DNA from: a virus
Length of the DNA stretch: 39,635 bases
Reading direction: 5' to 3' (one strand)
Virus record (IMG/VR): IMGVR_UViG_2799112921_000001
Span: 1 to 39,635 of that record
A program made the translations under genes and the position numbers. Shown in pieces: positions 20,371 to 39,635 of this stretch (its first letter is position 1; every line of letters begins with the position of its first letter). Below the pieces are notes generated by a model. The model did no database searches, was not told where the DNA came from, and was given only the letters and a program-made list of their open reading frames with translations.

Positions 20371-20461
20371 GATAGTGAAATTTGACAGAACAATTACTAT
20401 GTTTTTTTGAGACAATCTCTATTTTTGTTTGAAGAAAAAAAAATCATATTTTTTTATTGTT

Positions 20462-20482
20462 TCTTCACTATATACTCTCATA
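20462..20482 (-). promoter_or_regulatory. Candidate late promoter, copy 1 (TATGAGAGTATATAGTGAAGA)
   Basis: Exact 21-bp match to 30844-30864; intergenic, upstream of the head-tail operon; TATA-like core. Confidence 0.6.
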
Positions 20483-20645
20483 AATTAGAAACTTGTTTTT
20501 TGAACAAATTTTTTGAACAGAATAAGAATGTTTTAAAATTTTATTGAACACGAAAATTAGAAATGCGGTGTTTTTTATGATGGTGGTTGAACAGTTAAGT
20601 AGTTTTTAATGGTGAAAATTAAACAATATAAAAAAAATAGTGTGA

Positions 20646-20717
20646 TAGTCCTATCAGGAGTCGAACCTGAGTCAGCGGGACCAAAACCCACCATGATTGC
20701 CATTACACCATAGGACT
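20646..20717 (-). tRNA. tRNA-Gln(UUG), 72 nt, archaeal type, CCA not encoded
   Basis: Acceptor AGTCCTA/TAGGACT+A (A1:U72); D-stem GTGT/TCAT; anticodon stem GTGGG/CCCGC with loop TT-TTG-GT; T-arm TCAGG-TTCGACT-CCTGA. Confidence 0.95.
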
Positions 20718-20739
20718 AAAAAAAAATGAGTAAAAAAAT

Positions 20740-20833
20740 GGGAGGTACCCGGACTTGCACCAGCGGACTTATCTAAGCTACTTATCTAGCATCATTTTCA
20801 CTTAGTTGTTTTACTCGTTAAACTACACCCTCC
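20740..20833 (-). ncRNA. Aberrant tRNA-like element (possible intron-containing or degenerate tRNA)
   Basis: GGAGG(G)TG/TACCTCC acceptor with bulge; D-arm GTTT-AACGAGTA-AAAC; stem CTAAG/CTTAG closing a 23-nt loop; T-arm CTGG-TGCAAGT-CCGG. Confidence 0.55.
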
Positions 20834-20844
20834 ACAAAGAATAA

Positions 20845-21162
20845 TTAAGCTCTAACAGATACATTTCCAAATTCATCAAAAGAATAACCAGTAAACCTAC
20901 CAGAATCAAGCTTCTCACTAAAAGAAACATGCTCCAAATTACAATCCGGAGCAATCAATACAGTACAATTATTCCCAGCAAATATATAACATTCAAAAAG
21001 GTCATAATCAACAAAACCTTTATTGTAGTTATTGAACCTTAATACCACTCCTTTTTTTCTAAATGAAGTATATTCACCAGGTATTTTAAGGTCTAAAACT
21101 TCAGGTTTTAAGTCAAGTTGTAAGTTAAATTGATTTAATAAATCACCTACAGTTTGAGTCAT
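20845..21162 (-). CDS. Hypothetical protein (candidate immunity protein 3)
   Basis: 105-aa ORF with ATGA overlap to the upstream gene; last of three small genes after MuF. Confidence 0.75.
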   Translation of the reverse strand: MTQTVGDLLNQFNLQLDLKPEVLDLKIPGEYTSFRKKGVVLRFNNYNKGFVDYDLFECYIFAGNNCTVLIAPDCNLEHVSFSEKLDSGRFTGYSFDEFGNVSVRA

Positions 21163-21476
21163 TGTTCCACCTCTTTAAAAATAGGTAACCCTGTTTCGTC
21201 CAATAATGCTTTAGCTAACTCATATTGCCACTTATGAAAATCATTACTGCCGTCATCCATCATTGCTTGATGACCAAAACCTCTACCATGAATTTGATTT
21301 ATAACTCTACAAACCTCTTTAGACATACCCCAAAAAGACATGTGGAGCTCACTATATACCTGACCCAGCATTACCGGAGGCAATTCATTGTAGTTAATTA
21401 ATGCTTGAGTTAATGGACTATCCATCTTATTTTGAGTTTTAATATACTCCTCATTCAAAATGTATCTCATTTGCAT
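21159..21476 (-). CDS. Hypothetical protein (candidate immunity protein 2)
   Basis: 105-aa ORF with GGAG SD, downstream of MuF. Confidence 0.75.
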   Translation of the reverse strand: MQMRYILNEEYIKTQNKMDSPLTQALINYNELPPVMLGQVYSELHMSFWGMSKEVCRVINQIHGRGFGHQAMMDDGSNDFHKWQYELAKALLDETGLPIFKEVEQ

Positions 21477-21488
21477 TATCTCCTTGTT

Positions 21489-21737
21489 TTAGTATATCAT
21501 GTCTAAGACCCTGACTGCTTGATGTTTTAACCCATCATCCGTAAATTGGTTACTATGATATTTAGGATTATCATAATCATAACATGCATTAGCATATTCG
21601 CCTTCAATCATACCTTCTTCTTCTTTTAAAAATTTTTTTATGTCTTCTAATTCTTGATCTGATTCCGCACGTTCCATGAATAATTCACAAACACGTTTTT
21701 TAAACTCATCATAAGTCATAGGATATTCTTTTGTCAT
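21489..21737 (-). CDS. Small acidic protein (candidate immunity protein 1)
   Basis: 82 aa; ATG one base after the MuF stop (TAA-G-ATG). Confidence 0.75.
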   Translation of the reverse strand: MTKEYPMTYDEFKKRVCELFMERAESDQELEDIKKFLKEEEGMIEGEYANACYDYDNPKYHSNQFTDDGLKHQAVRVLDMIY

Positions 21738-21738
21738 C

Positions 21739-24700
21739 TTATTTCAACTCCAAGTCTTTTTTTATACTTTTATCTCTAATGCCATACGCATCCTCATACG
21801 GGTCATCAGTAGTAATTGGATCCACTTTTTTATAAAAGTCCTCTTTTTTAGCATTGTGGACTTCTTCACCAGTGTACTTAAAGAAAATAACATTTTCAGG
21901 ATTATCTCTTTCTTTTATCCATCCGGGTGGAGCATACTCTTCATTGAATTCAATGTGACTTACAGGTTCGAATCCACATCTACGGTAGACTCCATAGTTA
22001 CCATCAAAACTATCAAATCTGTCTCCACCGTTTTTTGTTGCGAATTCAAGTAAAGCTCTAGTACTATCTATAGATTTACCATTTTCTTTATATGCACATA
22101 CACTTATAATGTCCCCATCTTCCCTAATAGCTATTGTACTACCATGTTCTGTGACAAACATTCTGCAATCATCATAATTTGAAATGCTTTCAGGCAACTC
22201 AACTCTCCAAGCATATTTTGGATCTACTGAATCTTCGGCTCTGATTAAATAACCTAAAAATTCTGATGGGTCATCAACTTCCCTTACATTAATAGATTTG
22301 GTTCCATCTTTAGTAATATATTTAGTAAAACTACTATTTATTGGTTTTGTTTCATAATCAGGGATTATTCTCAATTTAGCATAATGTTTAGCTTCATCAA
22401 ATTTAATAATCTCCATTTTAGTATCTTTAGCTAAAAGAAACTCCATTTCTTGAGCAAACTTTGGATTCGTATCAAACATATGGGAAACATATGCTCCACG
22501 TGTTCCTTCTGGAGCCTCAATTTCATACATCCATTCAAAGTCACGATGACTTACTTCTGCAAAGTGTTCAGCTCCTTCACGAGTTACAGCAGTACTATTA
22601 TTTCCTTTAAATATAACAGTTTTACCTTTTGCAGGTTTTCCTCCTTCTAGTGGGAATAAATGATGTCTTTCTTCAGTACGCCAAAGAGTCATGTTTTGTT
22701 TAAGTTGGTTATTTTCAAGAATATTTTCTAATATTGGATAATCATGTTTAATACTTAGTCCAATTTCTCTGATTTCTTGTTTTGCCTTTGTTATATCTCC
22801 ATTTTTAAGATGACCTTCGACAAAATAATAATAATCATGTAATCTTTCTTTATCTAAATTAAGGACATAATCTGTGAATTTATCCAAATCGCCATCACAT
22901 TTACCAATTACATCTCTGAAATGAGCATAATCATTGCTTAACCATCTATTTAATACTTCTTTTTCTCTAGGAGTACATTTAGAAACATCAATTGTGAAAT
23001 ACTCTTCAATATCCCTATTGCCCGGCAGCACTCCGTTTTCTGTAGTGCCTTTTAATTTTATTAACTTAGTTTTATTTGTAATAGGTTCTGGTTTAATATT
23101 AAGTACATACTCTGGTAATGAATTATCTAATAAATCTGCATGAAGATTTAATTTGTATTTTAATTTAGCAAAAAGTTCTTTAAATTTAGTTTCATCACCA
23201 TAATTTAATCCCCCATCCTGTATTTTAAGTGAGTATAGCATGTTAAATTCTTGTTTAGATTGAAGGAATTCCATTCTTGATGTTTGAGTTGAAGTTAAAC
23301 TATCAGGATTAATTAATTTTTTCTTTTCTAAAGTCCATAACTCATTATTTTCTTTAGTAGTTAATTTAAAATCATTTAATAGTTCATTTTCTTTAATAAA
23401 TCTTTGTGAATATTTAAAACCTTCAGTTGAAAATTTAAGTTTTGGAGATATTTCCGGTAAATCCCATTCTTTAGCATATTTTTGATATAGCTTTATATAA
23501 TTTTTGGAATCAATTTCATCCAAACCCTCTGTAATCAATTTACTATGGAATCTATTTAAATCAACTTTTTCTTTTAACTCAAGATAATATTTTCTTTCAT
23601 TTTCTGGTAATGTGAATAGATTCTCTTTTAATTGTTTATAATTTTTCTTTTCTTCTGAAGTTAATTTGAATGCATCCTTATTTTCAAATAATCCCTTTTT
23701 GTTAATTTCAATAGGTTTTATTTCAATTTCTGTTTTTGGAACCCAATTTTTAAATTTCTTAAATAGTTTCTCATACCTGACTCCTTCTGCTCCAGATATA
23801 GCAAAGTAGTCTGTAGGGTCTCCACCTTCAAGCAATATTTTATTCCACATTTCATTGAATTCTTTTCTATCTGCTAAATCTTGATATACAATTTTATCTT
23901 TGAATTTTAATGAGTCTTTTTTAGGTTCTAGTTTAGCTAATGTTTTTTCTTCAGTTTCAGTTAATGCATACTTATTATAACCGTTGACTTTTTTAGCACG
24001 CACTATACTTTGTTCTTGTTTTATGAAGTCATTTAAATGCTTCCTACTATTTTTCACACGGATTTGAGTTTCAGACCTCCAATTAGGATTTATTTTTTCA
24101 GGATGATCTAACAAATCACTAATCACACTAAATCTGTTAGGATTGTTCTCTTTATTCTCTGCTAAAGTAGGCTCATATATTCTTCTTTTAAACCCACTAA
24201 TCCTTGTTTCATCTTTAATTTTAAATCTCTCTCCACAAACAATATGATTTTTACCTCTTCTAAGATTAGCTTCCTGAGACACCAATTCAGCAAACTCTTC
24301 CGCATCATTCGTTGTAGCATAATCTGAAATAGAATGGGCTTTAATTCCTTTTTTATTATGCAAATCAATGTCTAGTTTTGTAGCTTTGTTAATTTTTGGT
24401 TTTAATTTGCTTGCTACATTAACTGCATTTGAAAATTCATTATCTAATAAAAATGTATCTTCAAAGACATGTCCTAACTCATGATCAAGAACACTTTCAA
24501 AGGCATCATATTTGTTTTTAGTTAACCCTAAATCATATATATTTACAGTGTGGCCTGATGCATCTCCAGAATGCCCCTGCTTATTCCATCTTTTAAAGTT
24601 AATGTCATCAACACCAACTTTTAAATTGGGATGGGTTTCATCATATATTCGTAAAACTTCTTTTAAATCATATTCTCCTTTACCACTATTCGTAAAATCG

Positions 24701-25851
24701 ATAGCTCTACATTTATGGTCGCCTTCCCTAAAGAATCTTAAGTAAACATCGTTCTTTTTATCATAGAATTCAAATGTTTTACCATCAATACTTTCATAGT
24801 ATCTGCCTTTTGGGATGTATTCATATCCAAAGAAGTCAGCTATTTCTTCATTTGTTTTTAAATTAGCGAATCTTGTTTCATCAAATACATGTTCTTGTAA
24901 AGATTCCATTACTCCTGGTTTATCATAATAACCTAATGGTATTAAATCTGACTCTCGGAAATGAGACATTCCTACAGGCACCATCATACCTGGTGGACAG
25001 AACCATGGAATATTACCACACCTGCAATTAATCCATTCACTTATGGGACCATTTGTGTCTCCAGGATAACGCAAACCATTACTATAAACTCCACCGAATG
25101 GTATTATTTCACCATCTAAAGCCGAATGAGTATCACGTGTACGATTATCATGAGCAGATGCCCATTGAGTATATTCTACACCCATTTCTTCATAGGATTG
25201 CATTATTCCTTGCATGTGGCTGCCGTGTATTTCTGTTCTTGCTATTCGTCTTGCTTCCCATGTTTCTAATTGGCTGAATCTTTTTTCTATATTGGATGCT
25301 ACGTCGTTTATACCCCATCCGTCAGTGTAACCATCAGTTATGATTTTGTTAATGTCTTTGTCTACACGTGCTAAGGTGTTTTCACTTGCAACAAAGGTCT
25401 TGTCTCGCATATGCTCTGCACTATAATCACTGGTGGCGAATAATTTATCTTTCTGTATAATACTACTCATTGGTATTGTACTATCTGCTTTAACAGCACC
25501 GAAATAATTTTTACTATAAGCTTTAGCATATTGTTTAGCTCTTTTAACTAATCTACGTCCTTGCACTTGTCCTTTACGGTGTTCACGTAGCTTGTATTTC
25601 ATGATTGTATCATAGTATTTTTTATGATATTCATGTATAGGAGCTAATATTAAATCCATATGAGCATTCACCATTATGTCTGGACTGTAATACTCTTTTA
25701 GATTTTTTAATATTCCTTTTCGCATTCTATGGAATACTTTAGCGACTTGATTTTCTAGTTCGTCTTCATACATGTATTGTATAATGTTTTCCATCCTGGC
25801 AGCGAATAGATTATTATTAATGTGTTTAATTTGTTTCTGTAAAGTCGTCAT
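21739..25851 (-). CDS. MuF (SPP1 gp7-like) head protein fused to a zincin metallopeptidase, 3 helical repeats, an ADP-ribosyltransferase and a GNAT-like domain
   Basis: EARRIARTE...W...D.RTR.TH..LDG...YPGD...INCRC (MuF); HELGH at 24469-24483 plus SDYATTNDAEEFAE; ART R1058/S1086/E1135-x-E1137; C-terminal FDSFDG.YGVYRRCGF. Follows the portal gene. Confidence 0.85.
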   Translation of the reverse strand: MTTLQKQIKHINNNLFAARMENIIQYMYEDELENQVAKVFHRMRKGILKNLKEYYSPDIMVNAHMDLILAPIHEYHKKYYDTIMKYKLREHRKGQVQGRRLVKRAKQYAKAYSKNYFGAVKADSTIPMSSIIQKDKLFATSDYSAEHMRDKTFVASENTLARVDKDINKIITDGYTDGWGINDVASNIEKRFSQLETWEARRIARTEIHGSHMQGIMQSYEEMGVEYTQWASAHDNRTRDTHSALDGEIIPFGGVYSNGLRYPGDTNGPISEWINCRCGNIPWFCPPGMMVPVGMSHFRESDLIPLGYYDKPGVMESLQEHVFDETRFANLKTNEEIADFFGYEYIPKGRYYESIDGKTFEFYDKKNDVYLRFFREGDHKCRAIDFTNSGKGEYDLKEVLRIYDETHPNLKVGVDDINFKRWNKQGHSGDASGHTVNIYDLGLTKNKYDAFESVLDHELGHVFEDTFLLDNEFSNAVNVASKLKPKINKATKLDIDLHNKKGIKAHSISDYATTNDAEEFAELVSQEANLRRGKNHIVCGERFKIKDETRISGFKRRIYEPTLAENKENNPNRFSVISDLLDHPEKINPNWRSETQIRVKNSRKHLNDFIKQEQSIVRAKKVNGYNKYALTETEEKTLAKLEPKKDSLKFKDKIVYQDLADRKEFNEMWNKILLEGGDPTDYFAISGAEGVRYEKLFKKFKNWVPKTEIEIKPIEINKKGLFENKDAFKLTSEEKKNYKQLKENLFTLPENERKYYLELKEKVDLNRFHSKLITEGLDEIDSKNYIKLYQKYAKEWDLPEISPKLKFSTEGFKYSQRFIKENELLNDFKLTTKENNELWTLEKKKLINPDSLTSTQTSRMEFLQSKQEFNMLYSLKIQDGGLNYGDETKFKELFAKLKYKLNLHADLLDNSLPEYVLNIKPEPITNKTKLIKLKGTTENGVLPGNRDIEEYFTIDVSKCTPREKEVLNRWLSNDYAHFRDVIGKCDGDLDKFTDYVLNLDKERLHDYYYFVEGHLKNGDITKAKQEIREIGLSIKHDYPILENILENNQLKQNMTLWRTEERHHLFPLEGGKPAKGKTVIFKGNNSTAVTREGAEHFAEVSHRDFEWMYEIEAPEGTRGAYVSHMFDTNPKFAQEMEFLLAKDTKMEIIKFDEAKHYAKLRIIPDYETKPINSSFTKYITKDGTKSINVREVDDPSEFLGYLIRAEDSVDPKYAWRVELPESISNYDDCRMFVTEHGSTIAIREDGDIISVCAYKENGKSIDSTRALLEFATKNGGDRFDSFDGNYGVYRRCGFEPVSHIEFNEEYAPPGWIKERDNPENVIFFKYTGEEVHNAKKEDFYKKVDPITTDDPYEDAYGIRDKSIKKDLELK

Positions 25852-27451
25852 CTTCAGTTCCTAAATCATCATCAACCATATCATCGTCTTCATTCCAGAG
25901 ATTACCCTCTAAAGCTTTTAAAATACTCTTTTCTTCAAGGTAACTATTCTGTTCTGCTTGATTAAACACTTGCTCCAATGGTGTTCCATTCAAGAACCTA
26001 GCGTCCAAGTAAGGGTCATTTTCATTTTCTATGGTTAAACCAAATTCATCACCAAAATTATTCACTAAATCACGAATGGTCATAGCCGCTCTTTCAAATA
26101 AAAATCCTGCTAACTCTTGTCTGACTTTAACATCTTTTGGATCCAAATCATTAATAGTGAATTCCCAAGATGTTATTTCAAAATCGTCTTTTAATAATCT
26201 GTTAATTAAGTCCTCACCATCCGTTTTAACTGGTGCAACAGTACCATTCTTATAGTTTTTCTGAGTATACTCACCGTTAGTACCATTTAATTTTCCAGCT
26301 TCAGCTATTCCCAATCGTGCAGGGTCTACTTTATGCGCATGTATAATTTCATCTCTAATATCTTGCTTGTACATTCTGAAGTGGCCTTCCTCAGTATGTA
26401 CAGATAATGGGGTTATTTTAACTTCAACATGCCCTTCATCGGATTCTGTTGGAATAGTAATACATAAAGCACTGTGTGGATGTTTAATAATTTCTTTAAG
26501 CTGTTGACTAATTTTCCATCTTAAAGTTTGTTTTTCATCATATTTCGGATTAGGAATTAATCTACCATCATCATCTTCAATAAAAGGATCCTCATCATAA
26601 TCTATGAAATCACCAGTGACTGTAACTGCGAACTTAGGCATTCCGTTATTTTGGAAAAAACTAATATTATATTTTGTAGCAGATAAATCACCCTGAATAG
26701 ACAGCATACTACCTATAATTACTGGTCGACCATAATACTGATTACCCGGAGCATATTCCATTGTCCATAATAGTTCATTTGCCCTTTCTTTTTCAGGTAA
26801 TGTATTGTAGGGATAGAATTCACCAGTGTCTGCATGAACATCTACTAGACTTCCATCATCATCATAATTTTTACCATAAATGACATACCAGACTTTTTTT
26901 CCATTATCATCCGTGTATAATACTCTTTTACCATCAGCATCACGTGTTAATGTTTGTGCTGGAATATGTTTCACTCGATTTATAATGGAATCGCTAGTAT
27001 CCTCACGTATAATTTCTAATGCTCCATACCCAATGCTTCTACGGTCATAAAACATACGGTATAAATGTTTATTAATGGAAGGCTTACAATTGTTCAAGAA
27101 TTCAGTTGCAATTTTCTTTTCATGCTCAACTTCTGCTACTCCTTCAATAGGGTTTAATGTCCATTTTAAACCAGCTGCATCAGTAGCTACAGCATCAACA
27201 CAGGCTTCATGATAACTATTTAAATCCAATAATTTAACCAGATTATATGGATTATAAGGTGGATCCAATAAGTGAATACCTCTTTTCACCCATTCCGGAG
27301 GCGTTTGTTTACTGCCTGTAGATGGATCAACATCTGCTTTTACTGCATATTTCTCCAACTCTAATTCATTGATAAATTTATATTCACCTTTAAAATCTTC
27401 TGTTACAATAAATGTTTCACTTTTTTTAGCTTTTTTACTCATTAAAATCAC
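25826..27451 (-). CDS. Portal protein
   Basis: 541 aa after TerL; YYGRP.I, FFQNNGMP, IIHAHKVDPARLGI motifs of PBSX-type portals. Confidence 0.9.
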   Translation of the reverse strand: MILMSKKAKKSETFIVTEDFKGEYKFINELELEKYAVKADVDPSTGSKQTPPEWVKRGIHLLDPPYNPYNLVKLLDLNSYHEACVDAVATDAAGLKWTLNPIEGVAEVEHEKKIATEFLNNCKPSINKHLYRMFYDRRSIGYGALEIIREDTSDSIINRVKHIPAQTLTRDADGKRVLYTDDNGKKVWYVIYGKNYDDDGSLVDVHADTGEFYPYNTLPEKERANELLWTMEYAPGNQYYGRPVIIGSMLSIQGDLSATKYNISFFQNNGMPKFAVTVTGDFIDYDEDPFIEDDDGRLIPNPKYDEKQTLRWKISQQLKEIIKHPHSALCITIPTESDEGHVEVKITPLSVHTEEGHFRMYKQDIRDEIIHAHKVDPARLGIAEAGKLNGTNGEYTQKNYKNGTVAPVKTDGEDLINRLLKDDFEITSWEFTINDLDPKDVKVRQELAGFLFERAAMTIRDLVNNFGDEFGLTIENENDPYLDARFLNGTPLEQVFNQAEQNSYLEEKSILKALEGNLWNEDDDMVDDDLGTEDDDFTETN

Positions 27452-27458
27452 CTTTTTT

Positions 27459-29024
27459 TTATGCGTTAACTTTAGATTTAGGTTTACGCCAGAACCTCGC
27501 AGAACCTGTGCATGAATCAGCTATATCATCTTTTTTTCCTTCCTGACCAGTGAATGCTACAAGATGGTCTATGACTTTTATATTCCAGTCACCTTTTATC
27601 CAGTATATGCAACCGGCTTCGGCTAATGCTTCTAAGTCAAAACTACGTACATTCTTTTTATAGCGTACCTTGTCACCTCTGATGTTATATCCTTTAAATT
27701 TACGATTGTGACGGAATTTATTAATTAAAAGTTTACTTGATGCTCCGGGTTCCTGTTCTACACGGATTTTTACTGTTTTTCCATCTCTTTTTGCTGTTCT
27801 TTCAAAAGTTCTGAGTACTTGATTAGCTGTTAAGTTTCCTGTTACTAGGTTTAACATGTATAAGAATTCACCATCCCATCCAGTTAGCATTCCTGCTGTT
27901 GCATCTCCTTTTTTACCTGATGCACCAAAATCCCAGTACCTGAGTTTTGGTAAATCTGAAGGTATTTCTTCAGGTGTTAATTGATTATAAATAGTGTTCG
28001 TGGTTTCATCCATGAACCAATGACGTTTAAAGATATTTCCTTCACGTTCAACAGGCATGCCTTGATAAATAGCATTAAAGAGGTAGCTGCCCATTGCTCT
28101 TTTTTCAGCAGTTAACCAATCATAATCCCTTTGCTCTTCCCATAATACTTCATTTAGTTTTCTTCCCAGGATGTCTTTTTCAGGTTCAACACAGATAGCA
28201 GGAATATTTAAATCAACCCATGTATCATTAGGTATGCTGCCGCCATTACGTAGTATTTCGTAAGCAGTTATCGCATCAATAGTAGGTTCAGTAGTTTTAA
28301 TAATACCGTGCAAATCGTTTAAATGTAATCTTTGAGCAATAACTATAATAATTGGTGGTTTTTTATTAGTTCTACGTTCCAACCTAGATTTAACTACACC
28401 CTGGAACCAGTCTTGGAGTTTTTGCTGTTTGACTTCAGACTCTGCATCAGCAACATTTTTGATTGGATCATCAACTATGAATAGTCCAGCACCAAAACCC
28501 ATTATGGATCCTGCTGCACCTACTGCTAACATTTGTCCACGGTAACCATCCAGGTTAAATTTGTTTTTAGCTCTACTGTCATTGGATAATTTAACATTAT
28601 ACTTAGAGAGATAGCCATAGTGGTTTATTATGTCTTTTACTTGTCCACCAAACTCTGAAGCCAATCCCTGTGAATATGCTGATAATATTACTTTATCGTT
28701 AGGGTAATGTGCTAGAAAATAAGAAGCTAGATTCCGACTGATTAATGTTGATTTTCCATGACGACTAGGAACACTTAATAAAATACGTGAGACTTTACCC
28801 TGCAAAGCCTTTTCCAATAGTTCAATAATGACTAAATCAAAGTCACGTGGAGCCCATAAACCATTATTTACAAAAATACTCCACTCACCTAAGCTTAAAG
28901 GGCCACTATATTGAGTTGGAGTTGATGGATATAGATTTTTATTTTGATTGTATGGATTTTGACTTATCTCAGGGATTAACCCACTATTGTAAGGATTCTG
29001 ACTTAAAACCGCTGCATCAGACAT
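27459..29024 (-). CDS. terL: Terminase large subunit
   Basis: Walker A VPSRHGKS, Walker B FIVDDP, RNase H-like YWDFG and DDIADS. Confidence 0.95.
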   Translation of the reverse strand: MSDAAVLSQNPYNSGLIPEISQNPYNQNKNLYPSTPTQYSGPLSLGEWSIFVNNGLWAPRDFDLVIIELLEKALQGKVSRILLSVPSRHGKSTLISRNLASYFLAHYPNDKVILSAYSQGLASEFGGQVKDIINHYGYLSKYNVKLSNDSRAKNKFNLDGYRGQMLAVGAAGSIMGFGAGLFIVDDPIKNVADAESEVKQQKLQDWFQGVVKSRLERRTNKKPPIIIVIAQRLHLNDLHGIIKTTEPTIDAITAYEILRNGGSIPNDTWVDLNIPAICVEPEKDILGRKLNEVLWEEQRDYDWLTAEKRAMGSYLFNAIYQGMPVEREGNIFKRHWFMDETTNTIYNQLTPEEIPSDLPKLRYWDFGASGKKGDATAGMLTGWDGEFLYMLNLVTGNLTANQVLRTFERTAKRDGKTVKIRVEQEPGASSKLLINKFRHNRKFKGYNIRGDKVRYKKNVRSFDLEALAEAGCIYWIKGDWNIKVIDHLVAFTGQEGKKDDIADSCTGSARFWRKPKSKVNA

Positions 29025-30824: not shown

Positions 30825-30843
30825 GTAGAACACATTTTTTTCA

Positions 30844-30864
30844 TCTTCACTATATACTCTCATA
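30844..30864 (-). promoter_or_regulatory. Candidate late promoter, copy 2
   Basis: Exact match to 20462-20482; upstream of the ribbon/tRNA-like/holin/terminase unit. Confidence 0.6.
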
Positions 30865-31016
30865 TAATAGAAAAAAGAACATACAAAAAGTTTAACAAAA
30901 AAAATAGCTTAAAAAGTACAATCGTACCTTAGGGTCTTCTTTTCATATTTAAAGACCAGATTAAAGAAAAAATATTAATGGAGCTTGGAAAATACTCCAA
31001 TAAGACAAATTTTTTT

Positions 31017-34386: not shown

Positions 34387-35007
34387 TTATTCCCCCCTTA
34401 GCTTATCTTTAACCATATTCAACTCAGTAAAATCCCCTTTACCCAGATTACACTGCGCACATAACGTTTGCAAATTATCTAAATCATTAGTTCCACCTTT
34501 ACTAACAGGCATAATATGATCAACATGCAATTTCACACCATCCTCAATGGTAGCACCACATAATTGACAAGTAGAATTATCTCTATCTAAAACCTGTACT
34601 CTGAGTCTTTTTGAAATTGGTATTCTTTGTGGCATATCATTTTTAGATTTAACTATATCTGTCCAGATTATACCTAGAGAACAATTAACGTTTGGAATAT
34701 CGATAGCCGGCATAATACCAAACCACCATGTTTTATAAGCCATAAGCTCTTTCTTTAAGGTTAAATTCACCCCATTATCGTAACTCCAGTCACCGTAAGG
34801 AGAAAACTGTAATATGGCTTCTTTAACCACATAACCATCAAAAGTACCTTCCATTTCAATAAGAGAATATACCTCCTTAACTAATCTTGAGTTTTTAATA
34901 GATTTATTAAGGTCAAGCACATATCTTCGGCTGTCTGGTTTGTCAGTTGTACCAATTATCTCTTGAAGTCCTTCAAATTGAAATCTTTCGTTTAAGTAAT
35001 CGCTCAT
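34387..35007 (-). CDS. HNH endonuclease (C-terminal HNH, unknown N-terminal domain)
   Basis: RDNSTCQLCG...LHVDHIMPVSKGGTNDLDNLQTLCAQCNLGK. Confidence 0.9.
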   Translation of the reverse strand: MSDYLNERFQFEGLQEIIGTTDKPDSRRYVLDLNKSIKNSRLVKEVYSLIEMEGTFDGYVVKEAILQFSPYGDWSYDNGVNLTLKKELMAYKTWWFGIMPAIDIPNVNCSLGIIWTDIVKSKNDMPQRIPISKRLRVQVLDRDNSTCQLCGATIEDGVKLHVDHIMPVSKGGTNDLDNLQTLCAQCNLGKGDFTELNMVKDKLRGE

Positions 35008-35482: not shown

Positions 35483-36151
35483 TTATGAGCCTCCTTTATC
35501 TCTTTTTTTGAAATAATCTATTATTTCTCTGCGTTCACTAACACTAAAATTCCTGCTTTTAAGAACTTGTCTTTTAATCGCTTTAAAATCTATATCTTTA
35601 TCAGATACTCCTTTTTTCTTTAATGTTTTTTCCGCTTCAACAACTAACATAGGAACATTAATATTACTACTTACTTTTTCAGCTTTCTGTTCTGGTCTAT
35701 CCGATGTTGTTTCATTGTTATCTGAGCTAGCCGTATTCGTATCAAATAAACCAGAATCAACCATATCCTTATCAGATAAGGCTGGAAATGCTAATTTTAA
35801 AAGATACCTTTGCAAGTAAGTGATATCAGCACCGACTGCTTGAATAATCTGATTATTCGGATTCTTTTCAGGAGCAATTACCTCCGGGATTTCAATCCTG
35901 TATGGAAGATATTGTTTTTCATCCTCCAAATCAACTATTTTCAAAATAGCAACACCTTCAACAAATGGAAAATCAACATCCAATCCTCTTTTATAACATT
36001 CACTAAGAACAGGTGGTAAAATATCAATTAACTCATAATATCTGAATTTTTTATGTTTGTTAAAACCAGTTTTTTTTATTTTCATTCCCATAAGCGCCTT
36101 GTTTACTTCAACTTTTCTTTGGCGAACACTACTCACAGGCATCACCCCCAT
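35483..36151 (-). CDS. ERF-family single-strand annealing protein
   Basis: IKKTGFNKHKKFRYYELIDIL and QAVGADITYLQRYLL...F motifs; true start may be 36142 or 36136. Confidence 0.75.
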   Translation of the reverse strand: MGVMPVSSVRQRKVEVNKALMGMKIKKTGFNKHKKFRYYELIDILPPVLSECYKRGLDVDFPFVEGVAILKIVDLEDEKQYLPYRIEIPEVIAPEKNPNNQIIQAVGADITYLQRYLLKLAFPALSDKDMVDSGLFDTNTASSDNNETTSDRPEQKAEKVSSNINVPMLVVEAEKTLKKKGVSDKDIDFKAIKRQVLKSRNFSVSERREIIDYFKKRDKGGS

Positions 36152-38465: not shown

Positions 38466-39635
38466 TTATAGTAGTTTGTTAATTTTACTAATTAACTCAT
38501 CACCCAGACCATCATAAATAATACGCTCCAAATTATCCTGCCTGGACCTAATATCATTAAGCTCACTTTTCAAAGTATCATTCTCACTTTGTAAATTTTC
38601 ATTCTCTTCAACAGCAACATCCAACTTCGTACGTACTTTATTAATATCCTCAACCACCAAATAAGGTAAACACTTAATATACTCTTCTTTTAACACTTCT
38701 GGTTTAATTCGTATATATGATTCATGTGCAACACCAGGAACTTTACGACCTTCCAACAAATTAATCTTATCTAAACCCATACCCGCTTCAGCTAATTGCG
38801 TAGCATGATAACGTCTCAACATATGAGGAGCAAAACGTGAATAAGTTCCAGCTTTACCTAAGCCTAATTGATCATTAACTTCTTTAAAAATTTTATTTAA
38901 ATACCTATCCTGAATTTTAAAAAGTTTATTATTCTTATTGAAATCATCTGTTCTACTGTATAAGTAATTATTAATAGATTCAACAGCCTCAGGACTGCAA
39001 AAAGTATAAAAATTTTGATTAGTTTTTTGTCTTTTCAAATAAAAAGTAGGTATAATATCTATTTCAGAATCATTCATCTTCTCAATAGCTGTGAAAATAT
39101 CATTACTATGGTGAAATTCTTTTGTAAATTTAAGATAATCTTTTATAGTGATTTTTAATGTATCTACTCGGCTAACTCCACTGCTTGACATGAATAATGT
39201 TATTGCTTTTAGTAAAGGATTTTTGATTTCAATAATATGTTTTAATAATTCACGATCAGGTAATTCATTAGGCAATATGGGTGTTGGTTTTTTCACATTA
39301 GCCATACTGAAATAAGGTAGTCGTGGAATATTTATTTCAAAATGACGGAAAATACTTAATACTGCTGTTAAGTATAATTCTGCTGTTTTTTTCATGTATT
39401 TTTCAAATAAGTATCTTCTGTAATCTATTAATATTGGTCTTAATGTACTATTTTTCCAGTTGATATTTTGTGTTTCTTCTGCATCAGCAATGTTTAGTAA
39501 TTCAGGTAGTGTTTTTCCAGTGTATTTTTCAAAGTGTGTTATGCCTCTTGTATAATTTGTTATTGTACTTTCACTGCTGTTTCTTTCATAAAAAAATTGG
39601 GATAGTATTTGGTCTGTGGTTTTCATGAATTTCAT
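38466..39635 (-). CDS. int: Tyrosine recombinase/integrase
   Basis: SSSGVSRVD (R), HMLRRYHAT (HxxR), LEGRK, ESYIR (Y); N-terminal SAM-like core-binding region; C-terminal coiled coil. Confidence 0.95.
   Translation of the reverse strand: MKFMKTTDQILSQFFYERNSSESTITNYTRGITHFEKYTGKTLPELLNIADAEETQNINWKNSTLRPILIDYRRYLFEKYMKKTAELYLTAVLSIFRHFEINIPRLPYFSMANVKKPTPILPNELPDRELLKHIIEIKNPLLKAITLFMSSSGVSRVDTLKITIKDYLKFTKEFHHSNDIFTAIEKMNDSEIDIIPTFYLKRQKTNQNFYTFCSPEAVESINNYLYSRTDDFNKNNKLFKIQDRYLNKIFKEVNDQLGLGKAGTYSRFAPHMLRRYHATQLAEAGMGLDKINLLEGRKVPGVAHESYIRIKPEVLKEEYIKCLPYLVVEDINKVRTKLDVAVEENENLQSENDTLKSELNDIRSRQDNLERIIYDGLGDELISKINKLL

Follow-up and report, generated by a model that had tools for sequence, protein, structure and literature searches.

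A MuF head protein with three predicted effector domains and three small cognate genes in a temperate virus of Methanobrevibacter

The IMG/VR virus record IMGVR_UViG_2799112921_000001 (39,635 nucleotides (nt); this whole stretch of DNA is called the window below) carries, directly after its portal gene, a single open reading frame (ORF) for a 1370-amino-acid (aa) protein, P0001, in which a MuF head-morphogenesis domain is followed by a predicted zincin metallopeptidase, an ADP-ribosyltransferase (ART) and a GNAT-fold domain. Three small genes (P0002 to P0004) follow. Comparison with related loci supports each small gene as the cognate partner of one of the three additional domains; the small genes stand in the reverse order of the domains, and domain and partner are exchanged together between nearly identical viral genomes. 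The domain identities, the presence of one cognate gene per domain, the exchange of cassettes and the signals of co-expression are directly supported by the data presented here. We consider it probable that P0001 is a virion-packaged stack of effectors, whose small partners would neutralise them in the manner of immunity proteins.

A MuF head protein with three further domains

An earlier reading of the window, made from the letters alone (the sequence-only reading), had described a 1370-aa ORF after the portal followed by genes of 82, 105 and 105 aa, with HELGH at residues 457-461 and R1058, S1086 and E1135/E1137 further on. The ORF coordinates match exactly and all of these residues stand at those positions. 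The large protein can be divided into five segments, which are listed here with the three small genes:

21739..25851, minus strand: P0001, MuF-effector polyprotein, 1370 aa, single ORF
24892..25851, minus strand: module A, MuF/SPP1 gp7-like head-morphogenesis domain, aa 1-320 (Pfam PF04233)
23992..24891, minus strand: module B, predicted lethal factor (LF)/M34-like zincin metallopeptidase, aa 321-620 (motif and AlphaFold2 (AF2) fold)
22852..23991, minus strand: spacer 'Clink', aa 621-1000, K/L/E-rich, travelling with the ART
22357..22851, minus strand: module ART, R-S-ExE ADP-ribosyltransferase, aa 1001-1165 (Pfam PF03496)
21742..22356, minus strand: module D, predicted GNAT-fold domain, aa 1166-1370 (AF2 fold)
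21489..21737, minus strand: P0002, 82 aa, p82 family, partner of the GNAT-fold domain
21159..21476, minus strand: P0003, 105 aa, artp family, partner of the ART
20845..21162, minus strand: P0004, 105 aa, F3 family, partner of the zincin

The MuF core, expected at about residues 165-280, corresponds to a match of Pfam Phage_Mu_F (PF04233) to residues 166-278 that exceeds the gathering threshold (GA) of the model (E 1.4e-12, 48.8 bits against a GA of 29.6). Module A also matches PHROG families of head morphogenesis proteins, with E values as low as 1e-33, and was found in all relatives.

Module B contains HELGH at residues 457-461 and SDYATTNDAEEFAE at residues 509-522, and 13 aligned homologues all keep H457, E458, H461, Y511, E518 and E522. 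Y511 stands seven residues before E518, an arrangement that we take to resemble Y728 and E735 of anthrax LF. The AF2 model of the module, with a predicted local distance difference test (pLDDT) of 85, has the catalytic domain of anthrax LF as its best VIA-align match (Z 10.1, root-mean-square deviation 3.8, 178 aa), followed by the Pro-Pro endopeptidases PPEP-3 (Z 9.3) and PPEP-2 (Z 8.3); the seven best VIA matches are all LF, PPEP, or the LF-like domains of Certhrax and EF, and Foldseek also ranks LF first. There was no significant sequence match to Pfam ATLF (PF07737), which was only an Atlas lead, and the sequence-model matches obtained (Peptidase_Mx1/Mx, with E 0.002 for Peptidase_Mx1) are weak and below GA; we therefore file module B as LF-like by fold and not as a member of ATLF. 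By modelled fold and motif, module B is thus an LF/M34-like zincin with predicted activity, the structural searches and the invariant residues agreeing with the LF-like HELGH zincin of the sequence-only reading. It shares with anthrax LF and the Pro-Pro endopeptidases (MEROPS M34) the fold and the HExxH motif with a downstream Glu, but it has no protective antigen-binding domain, unlike LF, and sits within a phage head protein.

The spacer (aa 621-1000) gave no match in Pfam, NCBIfam or the PDB and no internal repeat in a self-BLAST, and is without detectable relatives outside the family of MuF-effector proteins. It co-occurs with the ART in most relatives and contains a recombination breakpoint at about position 23312.

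Scanned alone, the ART segment matches Pfam ADPrib_exo_Tox (PF03496) with an E value of 6.5e-10 (39.1 bits, GA 23.4), and the same family is precomputed on the homologous proteins P0007, P0013 and P0019. A profile built from 16 homologues retrieved Certhrax (2e-7), Lmo0066 (2e-6), CdtA (5e-4), C3 (1.6e-3) and Vip2 from the PDB; the galectin matches of a single-sequence search were spurious and are superseded by this profile search. R1058 lies in LWRTEE, S1086 in NNSTAVT and E1135/E1137 in EMEFLL. All 16 homologues have R1058 and E1137, at least 90% of them have E1135, and the Ser of the S1086-T-A stretch is replaced by Ala in some relatives (A/S). Family membership and the conserved Arg and ExE, which bear out the ART proposed earlier, are shared with the ARTs of the C3/Vip2/Certhrax class and with T4 Alt. 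The window ART differs from solved ARTs in being less than 20% identical to them and in that its relatives do not all keep the Ser of the STS motif. T4 Alt is packaged and injected with DNA, as cited in the study of polyvalent proteins (PMC5512222); it is carried via a capsid-targeting sequence, whereas the window ART is carried on MuF.

The AF2 model of module D (pLDDT 95.9) matches only GNAT acetyltransferases among the top Foldseek matches listed against the PDB (probability 1.0), and the best 50 VIA matches are likewise all GNATs (Z 7.9-9.8), so that the GNAT-like C-terminus of the earlier reading is recovered with confidence as a fold. The structural neighbours listed are titled general or protein N-acetyltransferases (RimI, Nat, PAT), and none bears the name of a toxin of toxin-antitoxin (TA) systems. 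Module D has no match in Pfam or NCBIfam, and a profile of its family none among PDB sequences; weak matches to Acetyltransf_7/GNAT_acetyltran occur in 2 of 70 family members (E about 0.007-0.01). The family comprises 1475 representative clusters at E<=1e-3, and in its consensus the loop after beta4 is non-canonical. On its modelled structure, module D is a GNAT-fold domain of a large unannotated phage family, and it is probably an acyl- or acetyltransferase.

Cognate small genes and exchange of cassettes

A BLASTP search with P0001 gave 60 homologues in Methanobrevibacter, annotated as minor capsid or head proteins, and 90 loci (designated by L numbers) were retrieved for a survey of architectures. 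The closest related loci were, every one, in Methanobrevibacter assemblies, inside genome contigs, in line with the archaeal-virus and methanogen setting suggested by the sequence-only reading. Since not only P0001 but all three small proteins have homologues in Methanobrevibacter proviruses, the ORFs are not chance.

Co-occurrence of domains and small genes was scored by hidden Markov model (HMM) searches in 64 dereplicated loci and evaluated by Fisher tests. F3 (P0004) is present in 10/10 loci with zincin B and in 0/54 without it (7e-12); artp (P0003) is present in 16 of the 18 loci with an ART, or 17 of 18 counting L103, and in 0/46 without one (3e-13), all these p-values being inflated by kinship among the loci; p82 (P0002) accompanies module D in 2/2 loci and is absent from the other 62. 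L103, the 17th ART locus, encodes a 207-aa artp-like protein, and the 18th, L017, a divergent 138-aa ORF in the place of artp. L019 and L029, counted in an early tally as B loci without F3, proved in the HMM search to have F3 at a greater distance, downstream of a split MuF or of additional ORFs. The same domain-partner pairs recur on A-modules that are merely 34-48% identical. Minimal cases exist for two pairs: in L236 a MuF protein made of A and B only is followed by F3 alone, and in L004, L012 and L170-172 an A-spacer-ART protein is followed by artp alone. More generally, a small ORF precedes the scaffold gene after 1/22 short MuFs versus 22/33 long ones.

The split MuF ORFs are found in L019:7998-11533 and L238:3001-6620, where the division falls between spacer and ART (868+225 aa and 812+385 aa, respectively) and both partner genes are kept; they may be genuinely divided or result from a frameshift or an assembly error. 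In L029 (6898-8543), the A+B MuF and F3 are separated by two ORFs with no family match, of 271 and 272 aa, which may be unfused effector and partner modules.

The sequences of the partners also follow those of the domains. Two ART subtypes can be distinguished, that of the window sharing 60-65% identity with the ARTs of P0016, P0013 and P0007 but only 37-42% with the ARTs of P0005 and P0008, and the partner sequence follows the subtype: P0003 is homologous to the ORFs downstream of same-subtype ARTs (L170/171/172, E between 1e-8 and 1e-13), and these ORFs form a bridge to the F1 family, which follows the other subtype. Within MuF loci, homologues of P0002 occur only after MuF proteins ending in D (54% identity in L002; E 1e-10 in vir075), the association in the Methanobrevibacter gottschalkii virus vir075 being an independent one. 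All F3 matches that could be placed in 103 genomes of the genus, with flanks of 1.5 kb, adjoin MuF-type genes. The only PHROG trace of P0002 is phrog_14233, of unknown function (E 0.003). Read as one cognate gene per effector, the one inhibitor per effector that had been raised as a possibility is upheld by near-perfect co-occurrence and by the co-transfer of cassettes described below, and each small gene is supported as the cognate partner of one domain.

Seven further loci (L247, L248, L251, L253, L254, L255 and L258), from other genomes of the genus, encode small proteins that share only the N-terminal ~35-40 residues of F3, their genes sitting 3' of ORFs with a divergent B-like zincin (26-29% identical). 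This suggests that zincin partners combine a conserved N-terminal element with a variable remainder.

The relatives present a mosaic of architectures: A only (~300 aa; many), A-B, A-B-spacer-ART, A-spacer-ART, A-X-D, A-X-spacer-ART and A-B-Y, the combination of B, ART and D being found only in the window among those tabulated. Module X is a second HExxH module (HEATH/HESAH conserved) with a weak match to the DUF6782 metallopeptidase family, which in sister viruses (L002:6961-8295, L013, L017, L021 and L092) stands where the window has its LF-like zincin and is always accompanied by a gene of the F0 family (82-98 aa) as the last small ORF; module Y has a weak ART match. Whatever the architecture, the small genes come in the opposite order to the domains (the spacer is omitted here):

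A-B: followed by F3
A-B-ART: followed by artp, F3
A-B-ART-D: followed by p82, artp, F3 (the window)
A-X-D: followed by p82, F0
A-X-ART: followed by artp, F0
A-B-Y: followed by a 114-aa ORF, F3

X and F0 thus form a fourth domain-partner pair, present in relatives, that obeys the same rule, and the triplet p82-artp-F3 was also found in two further genomes of the genus. This order corrects the first reading of the locus: the small genes are mirrored, the first pairing with the last domain (GNAT fold) and the last with the first domain (zincin).

Nucleotide comparisons located the boundaries of the exchanged segments. The window is 95% identical to L001 from the terminase gene to position 23312, in mid-spacer, where identity is lost; it returns at 99% from 21176, just upstream of the start of F3, so that the swapped block consists of the distal spacer, ART, D, p82 and artp. 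Versus L002, an identity of 97% stops at the end of module A (24895) and resumes at 20737, the sole shared island between these points being D plus p82 (22341-21487, 75% identical). The variable island (24892-20737, ~4 kb) is therefore flanked by virus DNA that is 95-97% identical, and these breakpoints show that domain and partner are inherited and exchanged as one unit. By analogy with polymorphic toxin systems, such cassette exchange within near-identical genomes is a signature of toxin-immunity cassettes. Module A itself remains 91-99% identical in the nearest viruses despite entirely different C-termini. The C-termini of Methanobrevibacter proviruses, whose comparison the sequence-only reading had called for, are highly variable, the opposite of the invariant architecture that it had named as counting against its proposal.

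These data bear on the possibility that the site of action of the enzymes is the producer cell or the capsid rather than the next host, the zincin processing the polyprotein or head proteins, the ART and GNAT-fold domains modifying the virion, and the small proteins serving as timing regulators. Such a role would fit the constant position of a zincin-like module (B or X), which always comes first after MuF in multi-module architectures, the proposal that metallopeptidases of polyvalent proteins are autoprocessing (PMC5512222), and the presence of a separate scaffold/protease-like gene downstream. We nevertheless judge it unlikely: extreme turnover of cassettes between genomes that are 95-97% identical typifies conflict genes rather than virion maturation, a MuF protein of ~300 aa without enzymes serves for assembly in many close relatives, and MuF proteins made of A and B only have nothing to release.

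The D/p82 pair extends far beyond the viruses of methanogens. We surveyed proteins with module D in 63 unrelated viral contigs (L173-L235) with an iterated p82 HMM and recovered a p82 homologue in 49, with and without MuF. In nearly all 63, an ORF of 55-96 aa starts between -18 and +14 nt from the stop codon of the D-encoding gene. Module D is always C-terminal in these phage proteins (117-1136 aa; e.g. L174:3210-4261 and L199:3237-4272), and in the loci checked the pair either directly follows the portal gene or lies a short way ahead of the terminase gene. Pfam has an entry for neither family. The association has exceptions. The Microbacterium phage UtzChips (L011, OQ190482.1, 3763-5337) encodes a minor capsid protein with a C-terminal D (29% identity), and its scaffold gene begins 163 nt after the D-bearing gene, with no small partner between. 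Such Microbacterium phages, together with the ~14 of 63 D loci in which p82 was not detected, indicate that the p82 partner is not universally required. About 1 kb downstream of its D/p82 pair, one contig (L190:3802-4962) encodes a protein of 386 aa that has a Zeta_toxin domain (E 4e-25) and may be another virion-associated effector.

The small proteins could alternatively be domain-specific chaperones, or packaging or folding adaptors, rather than inhibitors, which we regard as rather unlikely. Co-occurrence, coupling and cassette data would suit any obligate binding partner, and orphan copies outside MuF loci were not seen in the 1.5-kb flanks examined in 103 genomes of the genus. However, D and p82 also occur together where D stands alone, not fused to MuF, e.g. 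before terminase genes, the lytic Microbacterium phages have a MuF-fused D without a partner, and in the MuF toxin Apk2 the characterised partner IapK is an inhibitor that occludes the active site (PMC12226406).

Co-expression signals and genomic context

The small genes are tightly coupled, as had been noted: the stop codon of the MuF gene and the start codon of P0002 are one base apart (TAA-G-ATG), AAGGAG lies 7 nt before P0003, and P0003 and P0004 overlap in ATGA. A 39-nt direct repeat is found at 30835-30873 and 20453-20491 (85% identical, with an exact core of ~21 nt containing TATATA on the coding strand), upstream of both late blocks, i.e. the packaging/MuF unit and the scaffold/capsid unit. 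The repeat is likely a late promoter element shared by the two units. It suggests that terminase, portal, MuF, the three partners and a tRNA gene belong to a single late unit; after the tRNA region there are T-runs resembling terminators. The surrounding genes are the following:

38466..39635, minus strand: tyrosine integrase (Pfam Phage_integrase, E 5.8e-9, 36.4 bits, above the GA of 27.1)
35483-36151, minus strand: ERF single-strand annealing protein, early region
34387-35007, minus strand: HNH endonuclease, early region
27459-29024, minus strand: large terminase, TerL (PHROG TerL, E 1.6e-70)
25826-27451, minus strand: portal (PHROG portal, E 2e-28)
20644..20718, minus strand: tRNA-Gln(UUG) (ARAGORN), at the 3' end of the late unit and the distal edge of the variable island

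The head module has the order TerL-portal-MuF-...-scaffold-major capsid protein, with P0001 directly after the portal. Downstream of the small genes, a gap of 680 nt with the tRNA-Gln gene precedes the scaffold/protease-like gene and then the major capsid protein gene; ARAGORN called no tRNA in a tRNA-like stretch beside tRNA-Gln (20740-20833). The window, a provirus of a gut methanogen, is part of a 2.28-Mb genome in 151 contigs. Together, the integrase, the ERF recombinase and the HNH endonuclease mark a complete temperate genome, and we consider the element temperate on their account.

The location in a late unit is relevant to a further explanation, in which the domain-partner pairs would be TA-like addiction modules or superinfection-exclusion modules hitch-hiking in the head operon. 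GNAT toxins with small antitoxins are a known class of TA systems (PMC9561280), and stand-alone D/p82 pairs exist, one of them beside the Zeta_toxin-domain gene. The domains of P0001 are, however, fused in frame to a structural head protein and lie in a probable late unit, not in a locus expressed in lysogeny. Module D shares the GNAT fold and a small cognate protein with type II TA toxins of the TacT/AtaT/KacT class, but it has no sequence match to them. In GNAT-ribbon-helix-helix (RHH) TA pairs the partner gene is not known to lie downstream of the toxin gene, unlike P0002, which is downstream and has no RHH/DUF1778 signature. We consider this explanation very unlikely.

Proposed mechanism and relation to known systems

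We favour a model in which a temperate tailed virus of Methanobrevibacter would use its portal-associated, SPP1 gp7-type MuF head protein as a carrier for an LF/M34-like zinc protease, an ART of the C3/Vip2 class and a GNAT-fold transferase. Effectors would have been gained as two-part cassettes, each made of one effector and a small gene downstream of it, that went into the 3' end of the MuF ORF, and the mirror order of the partner genes would follow from such insertions. The four genes would be made together late in infection, with translational coupling. In the producer cell, each partner most likely binds its cognate domain and neutralises it, and would then stay behind, whereas the packaged polyprotein would reach the next host together with the DNA; there, without protection, the enzymes would act on host proteins and modify them. 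Cleavage of the polyprotein by the zincin may, in addition, set the other domains free, and the first position of B or X is compatible with the releasing protease imagined for polyvalent proteins; the MuF forms made of A and B only indicate that the zincin can also stand alone. A broader version, which we find plausible without quite favouring it, would make MuF a plug-in platform for serial effector-immunity cassettes, yielding stacks of at most three enzymes in frame and a mirrored array of their inhibitors, with the first-position zincin (B or X) as the releasing enzyme, held by the product of the last gene, and D/p82 as a very widespread phage toxin-immunity pair not recognised before (>1400 clusters).

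We infer the inhibition by the partners, the packaging and ejection of the protein, and its targets. Several observations weigh against a stack of packaged effectors with neutralising partners. P0002, P0003, P0004 and several of their homologues match no known immunity or other family in Pfam, PHROG or NCBIfam. A role in immunity that is universal is disfavoured by three findings: orphan partner genes were not seen in the 1.5-kb flanks covered in 103 genomes of the genus, about a fifth of the D loci are without detectable p82, and the Microbacterium phages carry MuF-GNAT proteins with no small gene after them. Some long MuF proteins (634-748 aa) likewise have no small ORF. Module D has no recognisable canonical acetyl-CoA loop (Q/R-x-x-G-x-G/A) and matches no Pfam GNAT model. 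Finally, the loci are related, so that the Fisher tests overstate their independence.

The system is of an already known kind, combining features of MuF polymorphic toxins and of polyvalent proteins. In temperate bacteriophages, MuF toxins have a small downstream ORF in 89% of the cases, and ARTs (14%) as well as metallopeptidases (20%) are among their C-termini (Jamet et al. 2017, PMC5576092). ARTs of the Alt/VIP2 type have been found fused to MuF (PMC9503650), and the toxin Apk2 is neutralised by Aph1 as well as by the downstream IapK (PMC12226406). Bacterial MuF toxins, including the EFV ART toxin of an E. faecalis V583 prophage, have in common with the window a MuF carrier after the portal, variable C-terminal toxins, small downstream ORFs, a temperate element and short MuF proteins without small ORFs. 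The window differs in its archaeal host, the survey of MuF toxins (PMC5576092) being of bacteriophages and bacterial genomes only, and in having, instead of one terminal toxin, three effectors with a mirror-ordered partner per domain, known from sequence; its partner families and its GNAT-fold domain are unannotated.

Polyvalent proteins of phages and conjugative elements also bring together several effector domains in one virion-associated polypeptide, as the zincin, the ART and the GNAT fold are brought together on MuF in the window, and in phages they combine LF-like metallopeptidases, ARTs and GNATs (Iyer et al. 2017, PMC5512222). In their network the LF-like zincin is the hub, with ART, GNAT and MuF among the connected domains, and it was proposed to be a polyprotein processor or an effector (PMC5512222). 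The term 'immunity protein' is absent from the text of that study, whereas the window has a partner gene for each enzymatic module; its ART is of the R-S-ExE class.

The paper on the virus MSTV1 labels the corresponding gene only as that of a minor capsid protein. Our literature search, which did not cover the compendium of methanogen viruses of Medvedeva et al. 2023, found no link of MuF toxins to archaeal viruses and no virion-borne effectors for methanogen viruses. The archaeal-virus setting appears to be new, as do the stacking in frame of up to three effectors, the mirror-ordered, one-to-one array of partners with mapped cassette boundaries, the four unannotated partner families, and the very large unannotated GNAT-fold/p82 pair that reaches far beyond methanogen viruses. 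By analogy with the bacterial systems, the locus would carry the MuF toxin strategy across the boundary between bacteria and archaea.

Near-identical viruses that differ only in a 4-kb effector island amount to a natural experiment, and the mirror-order rule assigns each unknown small protein to its enzyme. Tests are now possible on the three partner families, which are new, and on the GNAT-fold family, which is large and lacks annotation. Effectors that are injected or carried in the virion are familiar from bacteriophages, and methanogens shape methane output in guts and rumens. The targets that such enzymes would ADP-ribosylate or acylate in methanogens may be of interest for the biology of virus-host interactions in these archaea and as a source of tools to modulate methanogens.

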